Source of the DNA: an uncultured Gemmatimonadales bacterium
GTDB taxonomy: Bacteria; Gemmatimonadota; Gemmatimonadetes; Gemmatimonadales; Gemmatimonadaceae
DNA: 49,399 bases
Direction: 5' to 3'
Assembly (NCBI GenBank): GCA_963850905.1
Contig: CAWKMU010000002.1
Location: 1 to 49,399 of the forward strand
Each line of letters begins with the position of its first letter. The first letter of the stretch is position 1. Below are positions 24,001 to 42,000 of this stretch, one piece after another. Position numbers: made by a program.

Positions 24001-27000
24001 CAAATGGACGGAACCCCACGCCCTGAACGATGCCGGTGACCCGCACGCGTCTGGCGGCTGATGCTCGTTCAGCAGTGCCCGTCATGCGACGACCGCCTGA
24101 GTGGCAACCCGCGCCTCGCACACTAGGCGCCGAAGCAGCGCGTACCACTCATTCAGGCCCTCGCCGGTCAGCGCCGACGTGGTGACGCACGCGAGGTTCG
24201 GATTGACGTCTCGCGCACATCGCGTCGCTGCCTCGAGGTCGAACGGCACGTAGGGGAGCAAATCGATCTTCGTAAACACTGCGTATTGCGCGCGCTGGAA
24301 CACCGACGGGTACTTCTCTGGTTTATCCTCGCCCTCGGTCACGGAGAACAGCACCACTTTCGCCGATTCCCCGAGATCCCACGCGGCGGGACAAACGAGA
24401 TTGCCGACATTCTCGATGAACACGAGTTGGACATCTCGGAGCGTGATCGCGTCCAGTGCGGTGTCGACCTGCCGAGCGTCGAGGTGGCACGCGCCCCCGG
24501 TGACGACGGCATGGACCAACTGCGCGGTATGCCGCTCGAGGCGTCGGGCGTCGTTCTCCGTCTGCACGTCTCCTACGATCACCGCTGTCGCTATCTCGTT
24601 GCCCAGCGCATCGAGCGTACGTTCGAGCAGAGTCGTCTTACCAGCTCCCGGCGACGAGACGAGATTGATGGCGACGGTCCCGCTGGCGTGGAGTCTTTCC
24701 CTGATCCCGCGGGCGATGTCGTCGTTGCGCGCCATGACGCGCTCGCGCAGCTCAATGCGCCGGATGGTCATCGTCGAGCTCGAAGTACCGCACGCGGAGG
24801 ATATCACCAGGACAGCGTACAAGGACGGGCTGGGCCCGAGCAAAGGGCGGCCCGGCGAGGACCGCGTGCAGACAGAAATCCAGGCTAGTCAGGTCGACCC
24901 CGGCGTCGTCTCCCACATCCACGGCGACCGTCACGACATTGGGCAGCGCCTCCGCCCCCACGTGCGCTTCCGCGATGCGGCAGATCTCGAGCGCGATGCT
25001 CATCTCATGCACACGCCGACTCCGGCCGCTCAGACGCGTGGTGGCCCCAGGCCGCCAGCTGCGAGGCACTTAGTGCAATGACGCCGTCGACCGCCGCCGC
25101 GACCGGTACCGACAGCGGCTCGCCAAACACGACCCGTCCCGGCTGCGCGCCGATCGCCGTGATCGCGCTCGGATACGTGCCTCGCAACTCGGCGAGTGCG
25201 AGCACATCGCGCAAGCCCACCTGATGCGGCGAGATCGACAGATCGAGGCGCCGTGGCAGCTCGTTGGCATCGAGCGTGATGATCGTCCCGGGTGCGGCAC
25301 CCACGTCGATCGCGTCGATGACCAGCAACCGATCCGCCGCCTCCACAGTCGGCAGCAGTCTGAGCCCCCACGTCTCGCCATCGACGATCGTCACGTCGTG
25401 TCCCCAGTCCCAACGTTGGAGGCGGCGCAGCACTATCGCACCCAGCCCGTCATCCCCCATGAGCGGATTGCCGAGGGCCAGGACGACGGTGCCGCCGGTC
25501 GGATCACTCGTCCGCATACCGCTCGTCGGCCTCGACGAATCGCCCGCCGCTCACGATCGACGTGATGGCGCTAGAGCGCTCGATGACATCCGAGCGGACC
25601 GCGAGGTATATGTGGAACGGGATGAAGATGAGAAAGAACCACGTGGTCACGTGATGCACGAACCGGACGACCTGCAGGCCCCCAAGCAGGTGCGGGACCC
25701 AGGCGAACGCGACGTAGATCACGCCACCAGGATTCGACTGCCCATAGAGCGCGAAGCCGGTCAGCACCATCACGAGCGTCAGGACATAGACCAGCGTGTA
25801 CGACAGCTGCTGCAGCGGATTGTGTCCCAAATAATGCGGCGCACGCTCCGGATGGATCATGAGATAGTACTTGACCATGCGGTACAAATTGACCCAGTCC
25901 CGCCTTCGGACTGGGAAGAGCGCGGGGAGGCGCTCGAATTTGTCGCCGGCGATCAGCCAGTACAGGCGGACGATCCCTGTCGCGACCAGCACGCCCGCCG
26001 CCAGGAAGTGGGTGAGTCGGATCCAGCCCATGAGGTAGGGCGTGCTCGTGCTCTCTGGCGGAGCAAAGTACGGCGCGCCTATGTAGAAACCGGTCACGAT
26101 CAGCACCACGATCGACACCGCCGCCGCCCAATGCATTGCGCGAATGGGCCAGTGCCAGAGATAGACCCAGCGGTAGGACCCCTGCGGCGCTCCAACCTCG
26201 TGCCGCAGCGAAAACGGCGGCCTCGCGTGGGGGTTCCTGCCGAAGGCGGGGGTTCCTGGGCCCGTGGCGGACGGCATTGATGTCATCAGTGCACCGTGAT
26301 GCGCGTGATGACGTCTCCCTTGGCGTCGAGCACATGCACCCCACACGCCATGCAGGGATCGAACGAGTGGATCGTCCGAAGGATCTCGAGCGGTTGCTCG
26401 GGGTTGCGGAGCGGATGATTGTCGACCAAGGCCGCTTCGTACGGCCCCATCTGCCCCTTCTCGTCCCGGGGCGAACAGTTCCAGGTGCTCGGCACGACGC
26501 ACTGGTACCGAGTGATCTTCCCATCGCCAATCTCGACCCAGTGCCCGAGCGCGCCGCGCGGCGCATCCACATAGCCGTAGCCCCGCGTCGTCCGCGGCCA
26601 GGCCGCGGGATCCCATTTCGAGTCATCGAAGGTGCGCACGTCGCCCGAGCCGATGCGCTTCACAAGGGCGTCGTACCACGTATTGAGCCGTCGAGCGATG
26701 AGAATCGTTTCGATGCCACGGGCGGCGGTGCGACCGAGCGTCGAGAACAACGCCTCGGGACTGACGCCGAGCTTGGCCAGCGTCTCGGTCACGAGGGGCT
26801 TCACATCGGGGTGGCCGGACCCGTACGCGACGAGCATGCGGGCGAGCGGTCCCACCTGCATCGGCACGCCGTTGTACCGCGGCGCCTTCATCCAGGAGTA
26901 CTTCGACTCGTCTTGCAGGTATTTCCAGGGCGTCGGCGGTCCCGTGTACTTGGGCTTGGTCTGCCCGTCGTACGGATGGAGCCCCTTCTCGTCGCCGCCA

Positions 27001-39000: not shown

Positions 39001-42000
39001 GCGCCCGGTGGCGCTGCTCTCGCTCGCCGGGACGGCCGCGGCGGCGGCGCTCCTCTTCGGTTCGTCGGTCCGTGGTGCCCCGTCCCCGCCGAGTGTGCCG
39101 GAAGTGGGGCGGCCACTGACCTACGTCGAGCGCACGGGTCGAACGTTGTATGTGCAGCAGCAATGCGGCGGTTGCCACGAGATCAAGGGCCAGCCAGTGC
39201 AAGAGAGACTGAGTGGAGCCCCGAATGCGCCAGAGCTCACGGAGATCGGCCTCTTGCACTCAACCAATTGGTTGCACAGCTTCATCGAGGAGCCGAGGCG
39301 CTTTCATCCGGACTCGAAGATGCCAGCGTTCGGGCCACCGACGCTCAGCCACCAGGAAATCGAGGAACTGGCACAGTATCTCTCCTCGTTGCGTGGCCCG
39401 AACTGGGCGACCCAGCAACCCGAGTTCCGCGACACCTTCCCCGAACTGGTGAAATCCAAGGGCACACCATGACCGTGCATGTGGTGACGATCCTCCTACT
39501 ACTGCTCGCACCGCATGCGGGGGGCGTTCTGGGGCGCGACGTCGCTTCGCAAGGCGATAGTGCCAAGATCCTCTATAGCCAGAACTGCCTACAATGTCAC
39601 GGCGTGCGAGGACTCGCGCCGAAGGGCATCAAGGCAACATTTCCCAAGATCCCCACGTTTGACTCGGCGTTTAGCGCGTCGCACACACAGGACTCGATCG
39701 TGAAAGTGCTCACGCACGGGAAGAGTACAGACATGCCGTCGTTCAGCGGCAAGCTCACGCCGGCAGAGATGGCGACCGTCGCCAAGTACGTTCGGGGACT
39801 CGCATCGAAATGACGTGGGTAGGAGACTACCCTCGTCGAATGGTCGGACTGTCCGATGATGACCGCCGAAATGCGTGGCGCCACCGCCGCGTTGAACGCG
39901 CGGGCCGCGCTCCAACTCACAGCGGCCCAGGTGAGCCAGCTCGCAACCGTCAAGGCGAAACTGGATCAATGGCACAAGGCCGCCATGGACACCATGCAAG
40001 GGTTGCACCGGCAGATCAACGCGCTCGCGACGGCGCGCCAGGTCGATGAGCGTGCGGTGCGCGCGACCTTCGATCGGATGGGGCAGCTCCACGGGGATAT
40101 TGGCTTTGAGATGTTCCGCGCGCAGCAGGAGGTGGCCGGGATCCTCACCGCGCAGCAGAGCGACTCACTGGCGGCAGCGGGTCGAGCACAGATGAAGTCG
40201 GGCAAGATGGATGGCGATGGGCATGTGCTCCTAGCGGCGAGTTGGCCGCACGCCTGAGGACCTCCGTGTTCACCACGCAAGACGCCCTTGAGTATCACGC
40301 TCGTGGTCGGCCCGGTAAGATCGCGGTCGTACCCACCAAGCCGCTGACCAACCAGCGGGATCTGTCGCTCGCCTACTCACCAGGCGTTGCCGACCCTTGC
40401 CTGGCGATTCAGCAGAACCCAGAAGCGGCCGATCGCTACACCGCCAAGCGCAATCTCGTCGCCGTCGTGACGAACGGCACCGCCGTGCTCGGTCTCGGCA
40501 ACATTGGCGCTCTCGCCAGCAAACCCGTCATGGAGGGCAAAGCAAATCTGTTCAAGCGGTTTGCCGACATTGATGTCTTTGACCTGGAGGTGGGGTCGGA
40601 GGACCCTGAAGATGTGATCCGATTCTGTCAGCTGCTCGAGCCCACGGTGGGCGGCATTAATCTCGAGGACATCCGTGCGCCGGCGTGCTTCCAGATCGAG
40701 CAGGCGCTGCGTCGATCACTCAAGATCCCCGTTTTTCACGATGACCAGCACGGCACCGCGATCATTGTGGGCGCCGCCCTCCTAAACGCGGTCGAGCTCG
40801 TCGACAAAGCAATCGAGGATGTCCGCGTCGTCTTCTGCGGCGCCGGCGCTGCGGCCGTGGCCACCGCCGAGCACCTCGTGCGCTTGGGGATCGCGCGGGA
40901 ACATGTCGTCTTGTGCGATCGGAACGGGGTAGTCACTCGCGACCGCACGGAAGGAATGGATCCCTACAAGGCGCGTTTCGCCACGACGCCGGGCGCGCGG
41001 ACGATCACCGACGCACTCGTGGGAGCCGACGTGTTCATTGGGCTTTCCGCCTCCGGCGCTATCGCTCCGGCCTCGCTCCGGGCGATGGCGCGCGATCCGA
41101 TCATCTTCGCGTTGGCGAACCCAGTGCCAGAGATCATGCCGGACCAGGCGCGTGAGATCCGGCCGGACGCCATCCTGGCGACCGGCCGGAGCGACTTTCC
41201 GAACCAGGTGAACAATGTCCTCGGGTTCCCCTCCATCTTTCGTGGGGCCTTGGATGCCCGCGCGACGGCGATCAACGAAGAGATGAAAATGGCCGCCACC
41301 CGGGCGCTGGCGAGCCTCGCGCGGGAAGAGGTACCTGACGCTGTGGCGCGGCTCTATGGTGTCCCGGACATGCACTTCGGCCGGTCATATCTCATCCCGG
41401 TCCCGTTCGACCCACGGATCCTGATTACGGTCGCGCCGGCGGTCGCGTGGGCGGCCGTGGCCAGCGGCGCGGCATTGGGCATGATTGATGTTGACGAGTA
41501 CCGAGACCGCCTGCGGGCCCGATTCGACCGGGCGCAGGGGATCATGCACGGTCTCGTGCAGCGCGCTCGGCGCGAGCCGAAGCGGGTGGTGTTTCCCGAG
41601 GGCACCAACCACACCATTCTACGCGCGGCGCGAGCCGTCGCTGACGATGACCTCGCGCACCCGATCCTGCTCGGCTCGCTGGCATCCGTCGAGCGAGAGG
41701 CTGTGGCGGCGGGTGTCGTCCTCGATGGCATCGATGTACAGGATCCGGCGACCTCACCCCAACGGGCTACGCTCGCACATGCGCTCTGGACGCGGCGCCA
41801 GCGCAAAGGGCTGAGCCTCGCCGAGGCCACTCACCGCGTCTATAACGCCAACTATTTCGGCGCGCTGCTCGTCGCCACCGGGTACGCCGACGCACTGGTC
41901 TCGGGTGCTACGCTGCACTACCCCGAAACGCTCCGGCCGGCACTCGAAGCGGTGGGGCCGCAGGAGGGTGTCGACATCGTGAGTGGGATGTATATCCTGG

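Follow-up and report, generated by a model that had tools for sequence, protein, structure and literature searches.

Does the row of multihaem cytochrome genes in the window (the whole 49,399-nucleotide stretch analysed) carry electrons across the outer membrane, and in which direction? The genome-wide survey's note had proposed a porin-cytochrome conduit beside a bc complex and an uptake hydrogenase, and every component that it claimed is present at the locus. The reading favored here, with somewhat better than even confidence, is a Gemmatimonadota-specific porin-cytochrome conduit that would carry menaquinol electrons, with H2 among their sources, outward across the whole envelope to extracellular acceptors. 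A Gemmatimonadota cluster that includes bc genes is already on record in a 2026 metagenome survey (PMC13264449). The survey's note had suspected that the supplement of that paper might show such clusters, and it does: SAW209, named there with a porin-cytochrome cluster and petB/petC, is a Gemmatimonadota metagenome-assembled genome. New here are the identity of a cupredoxin, the likeness of the cytochrome MHC8 to OcwA/OmhA, the NrfH-like module of MHC17, and the prediction that MHC16 sits in the barrel.

Gene organization of the locus

When all six frames were scanned from stop to stop, just three contained at least two CXXCH motifs. Their counts are 8, 17, and 16 (Table 1), which bears out the 41 motifs counted earlier across three proteins. 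The likely haem total rises from these 41 canonical sites to ~45 with four conserved CX4CH motifs; orthologues have CXXCH at the homologous positions. The next richest protein in the genome has 4 CXXCH motifs rather than the 3 reported, and is encoded by an ActA-like gene on contig C3. The stop and start codons share 4 nt at both the MHC17/barrel and barrel/MHC16 junctions. The interval first assigned to the conduit starts at 25504, where the hydrogenase cytochrome b gene ends, and so covers both strands. The genome is 82% complete, and near-duplicate stretches are common to the cluster contig and contigs C3 and C4; CcmF and CcmE share 92% and 89% amino acid identity with the copy on C3. A sister species (L001) has the identical gene order within a 3.98-Mb contig.

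Table 1. Features of the conduit locus and its neighbors
Feature	Position	Strand	Basis
Second CcmF + CcmE copy	14844-17333	-	PF16327/PF01578, PF03100
HypE, HypD, HypC, HypF, HypB, endopeptidase (maturation)	19256-25517	-	Pfam
Hydrogenase b-type cytochrome, quinone-reducing anchor	25504-26190	-	TIGR02125, PF01292
[NiFe] hydrogenase large subunit	26286-28001	-	PF00374 E 2.7e-231
[NiFe] uptake hydrogenase small subunit, Tat-exported	27988-29253	-	TIGR00391
MHC8 multihaem cytochrome, 8 CXXCH	29565-31115	+	Stop-to-stop scan
MHC17 multihaem cytochrome, 17 CXXCH	31223-33265	+	Stop-to-stop scan
491-aa barrel	33262-34737	+	Without Pfam or NCBIfam family
MHC16 multihaem cytochrome, 16 CXXCH	34734-36305	+	Stop-to-stop scan
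Tandem cupredoxin lipoprotein, 277 aa	36519-37352	+	
Rieske [2Fe-2S] subunit, b6f-like bc complex	37398-37967	+	PF00355
Cytochrome b with fused c domain	37964-39472	+	PF00033, PF00032, PF00034
Monohaem cytochrome c, 114 aa	39469-39813	+	PF13442

The barrel and its predicted complex with MHC16

The barrel protein has a signal peptide, and profile searches found no Pfam or NCBIfam family for it. The survey's 578 homologues at E<=1e-5 were reproduced, and the named ones among the matches listed are all Gemmatimonad*. Residues C72/C79 and a loop motif, P303-P316, are invariant in the family. An AlphaFold2 model built with 55 sequences (pLDDT 81.8, pTM 0.74) has ~24 transmembrane strands, as 24 long strands plus a two-strand mini-hairpin, and replaces the earlier figure of 26-28 strands. 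Closure, which had been judged from the strand count, is supported by alignment of the model with 22-strand TonB-dependent receptor barrels (VIA Z 19.8; 352 aligned residues at an rmsd of 4.1 A, spanning residues 25-481 of the model). In silico, the protein has a closed-barrel fold and is the predicted outer-membrane member of a Gemmatimonadota-specific family.

MHC16 (523 aa) has 16 invariant extra His residues alongside its 16 CXXCH motifs, and its signal is Sec-type; the lipobox regex matched 3/73 orthologues. N-terminal c3/c7 (HmcA-like) modules, with a local profile match to HmcA (1gws, E 6e-10), precede a C-terminal five-haem domain that resembles MtrC domains II/IV (PF22113 at 375-514; Mtrc-MtrF_II-IV_dom, E 2.9e-7). 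This last match and those to Cytochrome_C554 and Cytochrom_NNT in the row reproduce the survey's Pfam results. The barrel and MHC16 were folded together without haems, using the analysts' own alignments, and gave ipSAE values of 0.67, 0.79, and 0.76 compared to 0.00 for the best of 3 controls; the ipSAE mark applied is reached by 116/157 solved complexes and 2/215 mismatched pairs. The runs had at least 49% of contacts in common, with partner pLDDT of at least 66. The MHC16 side of the interface spans precursor residues ~400-512. On the barrel side, contacts are spread over the chain from residue 41 to 471, and the lowest-error ones lie in the invariant loop (303-318). On this prediction, MHC16 places its C-terminal five-haem domain inside the barrel. 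Part of this result may be memory of the MtrAB architecture because the MtrAB complex has already been solved.

MHC17 and MHC8

MHC17 (680 aa) has 3 CX4CH motifs besides its 17 CXXCH, for ~20 haems, and its orthologues divide the same sites as 17+3, 18+2, or 19+1. An NrfH/NapC-like N-terminus is followed by c3/c7-type modules. The NrfH matches (TIGR03153, E 4.1e-8; 2j7a_C, E 3.9e-6) both fall within ~residues 98-159, a stretch of only ~60 residues that scores under the family cut-offs, and Cytochrom_NNT reaches 21.7 bits against a cut-off of 24.1. The first haem motif is CXXCHxM in 32/35 long orthologues. By sequence, the N-terminal module is likely an NrfH-like quinol dehydrogenase anchored in the inner membrane.

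MHC8 (516 aa) has one CX4CH motif (CAASGCH) in addition to its 8 CXXCH. A Cys follows the hydrophobic signal stretch in 57/57 orthologues by eye, and in 42/57 by a strict lipobox regex. Pfam matches are to Cytochrome_C7 and C554, and the sequence matches OmhA (6qvm, E 8.6e-9) and OcwA (6i5b, E 3.8e-7) in the PDB. This likeness to surface reductases makes MHC8 a candidate cell-surface terminal reductase.

Hydrogenase and bc genes

Profile searches recovered the hydrogenase, its cytochrome b, and the Hyp genes on the minus strand beside the row, as the survey had described. The small subunit scores 451.7 bits with TIGR00391, over the cut-off, and the cytochrome b scores 188.6 bits with TIGR02125 (cut-off 121.5); the start of the latter gene is approximate, with the ORF open to 26616. 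O2-tolerant [NiFe] hydrogenases carry two extra small-subunit cysteines. These are absent from the alignment to 1h2a_S, which shows SRREFL, ECTGCTES, CAHWGN, and the standard proximal-cluster motif. The enzyme is therefore of the standard rather than the O2-tolerant type, which fits use at low O2.

The 277-aa lipoprotein, earlier left without a family, consists of two blue-copper cupredoxin domains in tandem, each with a type-1-copper-like ligand set. Across 40 sequences, H62/H63, C122, H132, and M137 are invariant in one set and H195, C254, and H265 in the other; at least 90% of the sequences also keep M270 and the lipobox C12. The AlphaFold2 model has a pLDDT of 92.3, Foldseek returned two-domain cupredoxin proteins throughout among the matches listed, and relatives are named cupredoxin-like or carry PF13473. 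The protein probably carries electrons for the bc unit in the periplasm while tethered to the membrane, and it occurs together with Rieske, cytochrome b, and cytochrome c genes in one relative (L003).

The Rieske and cytochrome b/c genes follow the conduit row as reported. The Rieske protein matches PF00355 (E 1.5e-10) and, under the cut-off, an NCBIfam b6f Rieske model (E 3.6e-17). In the cytochrome b, b6 and subunit IV are fused and a monohaem c domain is C-terminal (PF00033, E 9.2e-54; PF00032; PF00034 at 391-476); its NCBIfam score for cytochrome b6 is 238.5 bits, under the cut-off. The monohaem cytochrome c (PF13442, E 1.2e-11) has a hydrophobic N-terminal segment. No second complete Rieske/cytochrome b set turned up in the genome; an alternative-complex-III-like locus is present as well. 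With a high-potential cupredoxin, a cytochrome c, and a bc complex as neighbors, inward flow would fit too.

Conservation of the neighborhood

Barrel relatives occur in 181/401 sampled Gemmatimonadota genomes; that sample includes 4 further members of the same genus, and 3 of them have no barrel match. MHC16 adjoins the barrel in 75/80 related loci (40% or more coverage) and MHC8 lies near it in 58/80, many loci being cut by contig ends. The four-gene core recurs across Gemmatimonadota.

Conservation of the hydrogenase neighborhood, a question that the survey had left, was examined in the 33 relatives with complete 10-kb flanks. A [NiFe] hydrogenase is encoded no more than 10 kb from the barrel in 12/33 of these (17/80 overall). 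The pairing takes three arrangements and is found in at least three clades of the barrel tree. One variant has the cytochrome and barrel genes placed between hypCDE and the structural hydrogenase genes. Where the cytochrome is a short 9-haem form, genes for a further multihaem protein, Rieske, and cytochrome b follow downstream in the same direction in 8/14 such loci. A Rieske/cytochrome b complex is nearby in 9/33 full-flank loci and ccm genes are within 10 kb in 14/33; the cupredoxin is linked to the conduit in 1/80. The hydrogenase is missing within 10 kb in 21/33, which was counted against the outward reading. Gene content, conserved order, haem sites, signal types, and the barrel fold are established in silico.

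Discussion

The linkage of MHC16 (75/80), the complex prediction (ipSAE 0.76 versus 0.00), the lipoprotein Cys of MHC8, and the anchor of MHC17 support the reading of the row as a porin-cytochrome conduit. We infer the carrier order, the surface exposure of MHC8, the acceptor, and the outward direction as follows. MHC17 in the inner membrane would take menaquinol electrons via its NrfH-like module and pass them over ~20 haems through the periplasm. MHC16 would receive them and, with its C-terminal five-haem domain within the ~24-strand outer-membrane barrel, hand them to MHC8. This nine-haem OcwA-like lipoprotein on the outer face would deliver them to a large or insoluble extracellular acceptor: Fe(III) or Mn(IV) minerals, for example, or humic matter. 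The membrane-bound uptake hydrogenase and its cytochrome b would be one menaquinol supplier, so that H2 oxidation would feed extracellular respiration, the hydrogenase being the site of energy conservation. The cupredoxin-Rieske-cytochrome b/c-cytochrome c unit would be a second quinol-oxidizing branch, and in some relatives may stand in for the NrfH-like module.

The same conduit could run inward, an unlikely reading in which Fe(II), Mn(II), reduced minerals, or humics outside the cell give up electrons to the cupredoxin, cytochrome c, and a haem-copper oxidase, with part of the flow going uphill into the quinone pool by way of the bc complex or the NrfH-like module. Flow direction is not readable from sequence. 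Such conduits also serve Fe(II) oxidizers: He 2017 (PMC5566968) describes NapC/NirT-type proteins and porin-cytochrome conduits in these organisms, and clusters with cytochrome-b-like inner-membrane proteins proposed for them. The tandem blue-copper protein, cytochrome c, and Rieske/cytochrome b directly after the conduit genes recall the cytochrome/rusticyanin/bc1 scheme of Acidithiobacillus ferrooxidans summarized there, and the genome has two haem-copper oxidase loci. Against this, the conduit has the cupredoxin beside it in just 1/80 relatives, and the bc complex in 9/33. The commonest respiratory neighbor is itself an electron donor system, the uptake hydrogenase, which is hard to square with a second donor pathway and is not of the O2-tolerant type, and the solved proteins closest to MHC8 are reductases from Gram-positive metal reducers.

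A periplasmic reductase or electron store for a soluble substrate (nitrite, hydroxylamine, sulfite, selenite, or tellurite), with MHC8 as an NrfA/OTR-like catalyst and the barrel as anchor or substrate channel, is quite improbable. Reducing such a substrate would take neither 45 haems nor a large barrel of its own, the prediction has MHC16 filling the barrel instead of leaving it open, the lipoprotein signal of MHC8 is conserved, and a motif search of MHC8, MHC17, and MHC16 found no CXXCK or other catalytic-haem motif. In its favor, besides OcwA, MHC8 matches octahaem tetrathionate reductase (1sp3, E 0.0042), and its residues 55-144 match a 'UshA-like (seleno)protein' model (E 8.7e-22). With ExtP, from a selenite/tellurite reduction operon, the cytochrome b scores 226.8 bits, under the cut-off; a TerB-domain gene lies inside the cluster of one relative (L039), and MHC17 resembles NrfH, the natural partner of NrfA. 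OcwA reportedly reduces nitrite and hydroxylamine in vitro.

That the conduit is real and its neighbors, serving ordinary H2 and aerobic respiration, are merely co-located without a dedicated link is very improbable: 21/33 full-flank loci have no hydrogenase and 24/33 no cytochrome b nearby, linkage is partly inherited within clades, and the sole complete Rieske/cytochrome b set may be general-purpose, but chance would place a hydrogenase within 10 kb in <1% per genome (a rough estimate) versus the 12/33 seen in three arrangements, one variant nests conduit genes in the hydrogenase locus, another lines up the Rieske, cytochrome b, and additional multihaem genes with them, and with the alternative-complex-III-like locus the bc complex is not the only quinol oxidase.

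If outward conduction is true, the respiratory chain of this soil Gemmatimonadota bacterium would be wired to acceptors outside the cell, with a hydrogenase among its feeders.

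The multihaem gene row

A six-frame, stop-to-stop scan was run on the 49,399-base window, and the translations served to pick the start codons. Two or more CXXCH motifs occur in three frames only: 29550-31115 (8 motifs), 31220-33265 (17) and 34098-36305 (16). These frames encode the multihaem cytochromes MHC8, MHC17 and MHC16, named by motif count, which with a 491-aa outer-membrane beta-barrel protein make up a four-gene core, here called the conduit. The genes and other features of the window are listed in the table that follows. Four-base overlaps occur at the MHC17/barrel, barrel/MHC16, Rieske/cytochrome b and cytochrome b/cytochrome c junctions. 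In the whole genome (4.49 Mb, six contigs) no other frame exceeds 4 CXXCH, where the genome-wide survey's note had 3, and the lone 4-motif frame is an ActA-like gene in an alternative-complex-III-like locus on contig C3. The Pfam matches quoted in that note and its 578 barrel homologues were obtained again, and its interpretation of the row as a porin-cytochrome conduit stands, with added support and several corrections.

Features of the window
Feature	Position	Strand	Remarks
Erythromycin esterase family	268-1617	+	Left contig end; PF05139, E 9.7e-133
Stretch shared with contig C4	10545-14719		88-97% identical to C4 623824-627722
PAS-GGDEF gene	13130-14092		In the window copy of the shared stretch only
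CcmF/CcmE pair	14844-17333	-	Second pair of the genome, beside the hydrogenase-conduit island
Endopeptidase, HypB, HypF, HypC, HypD, HypE	Beyond the b-type cytochrome	-	Then CcmE and CcmF farther along
Hydrogenase b-type cytochrome	25504 to about 26190	-	
Hydrogenase large subunit	26286-28001	-	
Hydrogenase small subunit	27988-29253	-	
MHC8	29565-31115	+	
MHC17	31223-33265	+	
Barrel	33262-34737	+	
MHC16	34734-36305	+	
277-aa lipoprotein (tandem cupredoxin)	36519-37352	+	
Rieske protein	37398-37967	+	
Cytochrome b with fused c domain	37964-39472	+	
Monohaem cytochrome c	39469-39813	+	
Small ORF	39856-40257	+	Weak Metal_resist match (Spy/CpxP-like, under cut-off); lies between the cytochrome c and malic enzyme genes and overlaps the malic enzyme start
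Small TPR-like family member	43413-43919	-	N-terminal hydrophobic segment, no Pfam match; 7 kb off

A mobile element or plasmid is ruled out as the source of the contig: integrase, transposase and replication genes are absent among the scanned ORFs, and the same arrangement lies inside a long contig of a relative. Promoter and terminator scans of the row gave counts no different from the shuffled level. The runs containing the stretch are four soil-metagenome DNA runs from one study and 0 RNA runs, and the completeness of the genome is estimated at 82%.

Haem sites and domain matches of the cytochromes

Beside the canonical motifs, CX4CH sites of the form C-x-x-[S/A]-G-C-H occur once in MHC8 and three times in MHC17. 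Canonical plus extended motifs number 17+3, 18+2 or 19+1 in MHC17 orthologues and 8+1 or 9+0 in MHC8 orthologues. The CX4CH positions behave as haem sites because orthologues exchange the two motif types at constant totals. A fourth site of MHC17, a CX3CH overlapping a canonical motif, is probably incidental. Judged from these motifs, the haem totals are likely 9 in MHC8, 20 in MHC17 and 16 in MHC16, about 45 in all, which revises the earlier count of 41. MHC16 has 16 invariant histidines outside its motifs, the pattern expected for bis-His haems.

A cysteine directly follows the hydrophobic signal stretch in all 57 MHC8 orthologues (scored by eye) and precedes a conserved [VT]-x-[ED]-[KH]-I-V-Y-R; the strict lipobox pattern matches 42 of the 57. 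The closest solved relatives of MHC8 by sequence are OmhA of Carboxydothermus (6qvm, E 8.6e-9) and OcwA of Thermincola (6i5b, E 3.8e-7), and octahaem tetrathionate reductase (1sp3) is matched at E 0.0042. OmcB-like and NrfA-like clusters that turn up in the ESM Atlas are leads only. MHC17 begins with one or two hydrophobic helices followed by a segment that matches NrfH (2j7a_C, E 3.9e-6, residues 98-158 only). The same protein scores 33.4 bits against the NrfH model TIGR03153 (E 4.1e-8, cut-off 134.2) and 21.7 bits against the NapC/NirT family PF03264, under the cut-off of 24.1. Of 35 long MHC17 orthologues, 32 start their haem motifs with CXXCHxM, the NrfH signature of the quinol-site haem. 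The remainder of MHC17 matches c3/c7 modules.

MHC16 has a Sec-type signal and is not a lipoprotein, the lipobox pattern being present in 3 of 73 orthologues. A profile of 32 orthologues was searched against the PDB and found the 16-haem HmcA of Desulfovibrio at E 6e-10 to 8e-9 as a local match (profile positions 19-114), a GSU1996 fragment, ActA and, weakly, MtrC (6r2q_C, E 0.017). Residues 375-514 reach the MtrC/MtrF domain II/IV model PF22113 with 30.6 bits (cut-off 30), and no NCBIfam model matches MHC16.

The barrel and its predicted fit with MHC16

The barrel matches no Pfam or NCBIfam family, including the Pfam models of MtrB/PioB, and its 55-member profile has 0 matches at E<=10 among PDB sequences, 6r2q_B included. 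AlphaFold2 with 55 sequences gave a model (pLDDT 81.8, pTM 0.74) that contains 24 long strands and, at the invariant C72/C79, a two-strand mini-hairpin, with no helix past the signal peptide; the survey's note had counted 26-28 strands. Foldseek returned generic outer-membrane barrels only (TM 0.25-0.49), with MtrB (6r2q_B) at rank 26 (TM 0.39/0.31). VIA-align placed 352 residues of model range 25-481 on 22-strand TonB-dependent receptors (Z 19.8, rmsd 4.1 A); ushers and Occ porins ranked next. Alignment of the predicted structure onto closed barrels from first to last strand, together with the complex contacts described next, argues for closure.

The most conserved stretch of the family is barrel residues 303-318, with invariant P303, F305, L307, W308, I310, W311, G312, F314 and P316, and it is a low-confidence loop in the single-chain model. 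The mature barrel (26-491) and mature MHC16 were folded together from our own alignments (55 barrel members, 32 MHC16 sequences), with haems left out. Three runs gave ipSAE values of 0.67, 0.79 and 0.76, and three controls all gave 0.00. Benchmark rates for attaining this mark are 116 of 157 among solved complexes and 2 of 215 among mismatched pairs. At least 49% of contacts are common to the runs, with a partner pLDDT of at least 66. Confident contacts are spread along the barrel chain from residue 41 to residue 471. On the MHC16 side they are confined to alignment positions 383-495, about residues 400-512 of the precursor, which is the C-terminal domain with the last five haem motifs. The pairs of lowest error fall within barrel 303-318. 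The C-terminal domain of MHC16 is thus predicted to sit in the barrel, where loops 190-209 and 303-318 would hold it. Part of the confidence may be recall of architecture because a solved MtrAB complex exists.

Distribution and gene neighborhood in relatives

Barrel matches at E<=1e-10 were found in 181 of 401 sampled genomes of the phylum, in 180 of 395 high-quality genomes and in 80 of 147 genera; within the window's genus, one of four other genomes has a match. The profile recovered 552 of 1.84 billion cluster representatives at E<=0.001 (192 at E<=1e-30). Every neighbor of the barrel in the ESM Atlas is a Gemmatimonadota cluster that lacks a Pfam family. For MHC16 the homologues number at least 1434; those named by taxon are Gemmatimonad* "cytochrome c3 family protein" entries, and one is labelled "bacterium" only.

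A related-locus search matched 314 species-level genomes, and 80 loci were kept, all from genomes labelled Gemmatimonadota or from unclassified MAGs. Window proteins were compared with these loci by tblastn, and 33 of the loci have 10 kb on both sides (full-flank loci).

Genes near the barrel gene in related loci
Gene	All loci	Full-flank loci
MHC16	75/80	33/33
MHC8	58/80	30/33
Hydrogenase large subunit	17/80	12/33
Cytochrome b	13/80	9/33
CcmF	28/80	14/33
Any of hydrogenase large subunit, cytochrome b or CcmF	48/80	28/33

The hydrogenase neighborhood, whose conservation the survey's note had left open, does recur; 21 of the 33 full-flank loci have no hydrogenase near the barrel. The loci include three variants that differ at the MHC17 position.

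Variants of the conduit
Variant	Loci	Loci with hydrogenase	Loci with bc genes
Long, like the window's, with a 17-20-motif MHC17	37	7	2
Short, with a 9-haem cytochrome replacing MHC17	14	0	8
No gene at the MHC17 position, two MHC8 paralogues	9	8	

The hydrogenase genes lie upstream and divergent in the window and in loci L001 and L005, and downstream on the same strand in 15 loci. In L079 they are upstream on the same strand, with only the cytochrome b and Hyp genes before the contig end. At L016 6464-9776 there are two tandem OcwA-like lipoprotein cytochromes and no NrfH-like cytochrome, and the cytochrome and barrel genes of that locus are nested between hypCDE and the structural hydrogenase genes. 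In the short-variant locus L039 (12432-16150), MHC16 is followed on the same strand by an extra multihaem cytochrome, a TerB-domain gene, a Rieske gene and a cytochrome b without the c domain. A quick maximum-likelihood tree of 77 barrels spreads hydrogenase-linked loci over three or more clades; most loci of the short bc-linked form group in a single clade of ten. Given this spread, linkage to hydrogenase or bc genes is partly inherited, yet not a single event.

The barrel of L001 is 90% identical to that of the window. This locus keeps the window's order from HypF to malic enzyme, with the cupredoxin absent, and because it does so inside a 3.98-Mb contig the arrangement is chromosomal and no artefact of a short contig. 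Clustering of flank ORFs identified a full ccm operon (CcmA, B, C, E, F, H and thioredoxin) as a neighbor, and the whole operon adjoins the conduit genes in many relatives. The same clustering found a small TPR protein in 22 loci, often directly after MHC16, which may be an assembly or docking factor. It belongs to a small family of about 170-180 aa; the member at L034 12987-13520 has weak TPR matches, and the window's own member is on the strand opposite to the conduit.

Hydrogenase, ccm genes and the bc unit

The hydrogenase is of the membrane-bound group 1 [NiFe] uptake type by its sequence matches: TIGR00391 and TIGR02125 exceed cut-off, and PF00374 matches the large subunit. HypB, C, D, E and F and the protease complete a maturation set. 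The small subunit carries the Tat motif SRREFL and reads ECTGCTES and CAHWGN at positions where O2-tolerant (six-cysteine) enzymes have two extra cysteines. An O2-tolerant enzyme is ruled out by this alignment, and the hydrogenase looks like a standard, O2-sensitive, quinone-reducing uptake enzyme.

The CcmF and CcmE proteins of the window are 92% and 89% identical to those at C3 227488-230012, with 81% DNA identity. The stretch shared with contig C4 is either a recent duplication or co-assembled DNA of a sister strain. Because of these near-duplicates on C3 and C4, strain mixing in the assembly is possible; the cluster itself is unaffected.

The 277-aa lipoprotein, left without a family in the survey's note, was identified as a cupredoxin from its ligand sets, model, Foldseek matches and homologue names. 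Among 416 homologues some are named "cupredoxin-like copper-binding protein", some carry PF13473 and one has a cytochrome c domain fused to it. Invariant across 40 aligned sequences are H62/H63, C122, H132 and M137 of repeat 1 and H195, C254 and H265 of repeat 2; M270 and the lipobox C12 are each conserved in at least 90%. The model has a pLDDT of 92.3. The Foldseek matches listed are all two-domain cupredoxin proteins with probability 1.00, and a different arrangement of the domains keeps the global TM down to about 0.25. By sequence and model the protein is a tandem type-1-copper-like cupredoxin with two predicted ligand sets. A multicopper oxidase is ruled out, since the cysteines have no flanking His and there is no HCH motif. 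L003 is the only one of 80 relatives with this gene near the barrel, and there it precedes the Rieske, cytochrome b and cytochrome c genes; for this reason the cupredoxin was assigned to the Rieske-cytochrome b/c unit (bc unit) and not to the conduit. A stand-alone paralogue with 41-44% identity is encoded at C4 379403-380171.

The bc unit is complete, with PF00355, PF00033, PF00032 and PF00034/PF13442 all above cut-off, and none of its proteins reaches an equivalog-level NCBIfam model. The cytochrome b scores 226.8 bits against ExtP (cut-off 290), no better than against generic cytochrome b6. This is the sole complete Rieske/cytochrome b set found in the genome, and the genome has two haem-copper oxidase loci. 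The window's bc unit may work mainly for the oxidases, by way of the cupredoxin and cytochrome c. An orphan cytochrome b gene without a Rieske partner is present at C3 955501-956559 (L081 4501-5559). The alternative-complex-III-like locus at about C3 2314000-2319500 (L083) matches ActA/QrcA, QrcB/QrcC and NrfD/DsrP models; the coding sequences there are broken up among several frames, probably by sequencing indels.

Comparison with known systems

The conduit has the logic of MtrCAB of Shewanella (6r2q), in which a periplasmic multihaem cytochrome is threaded in a large barrel and paired with a multihaem lipoprotein at the outside. The parts differ. MtrB has 26 strands and bears no sequence relation to the window barrel, and its chain in 6r2q_B is 649 residues compared with 491 aa and about 24 strands here. 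The inserted cytochrome would carry 16 haems instead of 10, the lipoprotein partner is OcwA-like and not MtrC-like, and in place of a tetrahaem CymA the putative quinol dehydrogenase is joined to a 20-haem wire. MHC8 scores 35.7 bits against the MtrA/DmsE model TIGR03508 (cut-off 192.2). By sequence homology, neither an MtrB/PioB barrel nor an MtrA/DmsE decahaem cytochrome was found, and for the MtrC/OmcA-type decahaem lipoprotein only the C-terminal domain of MHC16 reaches a family model, PF22113. As a functional class, porin-cytochrome systems fit the window in that a large barrel is encoded beside multihaem cytochromes and a cytochrome is predicted to insert into it.

In Geobacter OmaB-OmbB-OmcB and ExtHIJKL with ExtM-S, the genes for a porin-like protein and for a periplasmic and a lipoprotein cytochrome lie together, and the Ext cluster has a b6-like cytochrome, ExtP. 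The window has the same combination with different haem numbers, and no NCBIfam model of the Geobacter families matches its barrel. MHC8 resembles OcwA and OmhA in sequence and has nine haem motifs like OcwA, a nonahaem protein. OcwA and OmhA are surface cytochromes of Gram-positives that lack an outer membrane, whereas MHC8 is a lipoprotein encoded with a barrel. NrfH has 4 haems in 159 residues and MHC17 about 20 in 680; both have a membrane helix and a CXXCHxM first haem. HmcA of Desulfovibrio and MHC16 both have 16 haems in c3-type modules; HmcA is linked to hydrogenases and, unlike MHC16, is not barrel-associated.

A full-text literature search found no description of this barrel or conduit family. 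The candidate conduits PCC3 and PCC4 place a porin beside many-haem cytochromes and include a conserved five-helix inner-membrane protein of about 300 aa that has two HX13H motifs (He et al. 2017, PMC5566968). In a comparison by that description only, no such protein is encoded within 29565-39813, where every gene is accounted for. PMC13264449 lists MAG SAW209 among those with porin-cytochrome clusters including petB and petC, and its Table S3 places SAW209 in Gemmatimonadota, family GWC2-71-9. The clusters of both papers likewise combine a porin with many-haem cytochromes, some beside cytochrome bc genes; unlike the present analysis, the available portions of these papers contain no family-level description, cupredoxin, hydrogenase link or structural model. 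Two further reports place a true Mtr homologue, a different system, in one marine Gemmatimonadetes bin (PMC8805035, PMC4411801), and another counts one CbcL-type and two ImcH-type homologues in Gemmatimonadota (PMC6295460).

Proposed electron path

Gene content, conservation and signal types were read directly from the window and its relatives. The best-supported reading makes the cluster a porin-cytochrome conduit that crosses the cell envelope. In this scheme MHC17 would oxidize menaquinol with its NrfH-like module and pass electrons along its roughly 20 haems to MHC16. The C-terminal domain of MHC16, enclosed by the barrel, would carry them on to the lipoprotein MHC8 at the outer face, which would deliver them to an acceptor outside the cell. 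The quinone pool would be supplied by the hydrogenase, with energy conserved there, by analogy with the hydrogenase-menaquinone-NrfH chain of Wolinella. We infer the order of carriers, the surface exposure, the acceptor and the outward direction; the direction of electron flow is not readable from sequence. In the short-form relatives the NrfH-like module appears to be replaced by a Rieske/cytochrome b complex that has a multihaem partner of its own; the window encodes both. A bolder scheme, to which we give rather poor chances, has soil Gemmatimonadota carrying out H2-fuelled extracellular respiration via a phylum-specific conduit, with the periplasmic hydrogenase of the nested, quinol-dehydrogenase-free variant passing electrons directly to the HmcA-like MHC16 and bypassing the quinone pool.

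Significance

What is new is a barrel family with an unusual cytochrome set, which occurs widely in a major soil phylum and shows a recurrent link to H2 oxidation. Its structural interest lies in a barrel without known relatives, a putative 20-haem quinol dehydrogenase long enough to span the periplasm, and an apparent re-use of a Gram-positive-type surface reductase as a lipoprotein (MHC8). Gemmatimonadota rank with the more abundant phyla of soil, yet cultured members are few and their anoxic respiration is poorly known; the soil members are usually regarded as aerobes. If the proposed path is true, it would let them use humic matter or minerals of iron or manganese in respiration once soils become anoxic, and it would tie soil H2 turnover to metal cycling.
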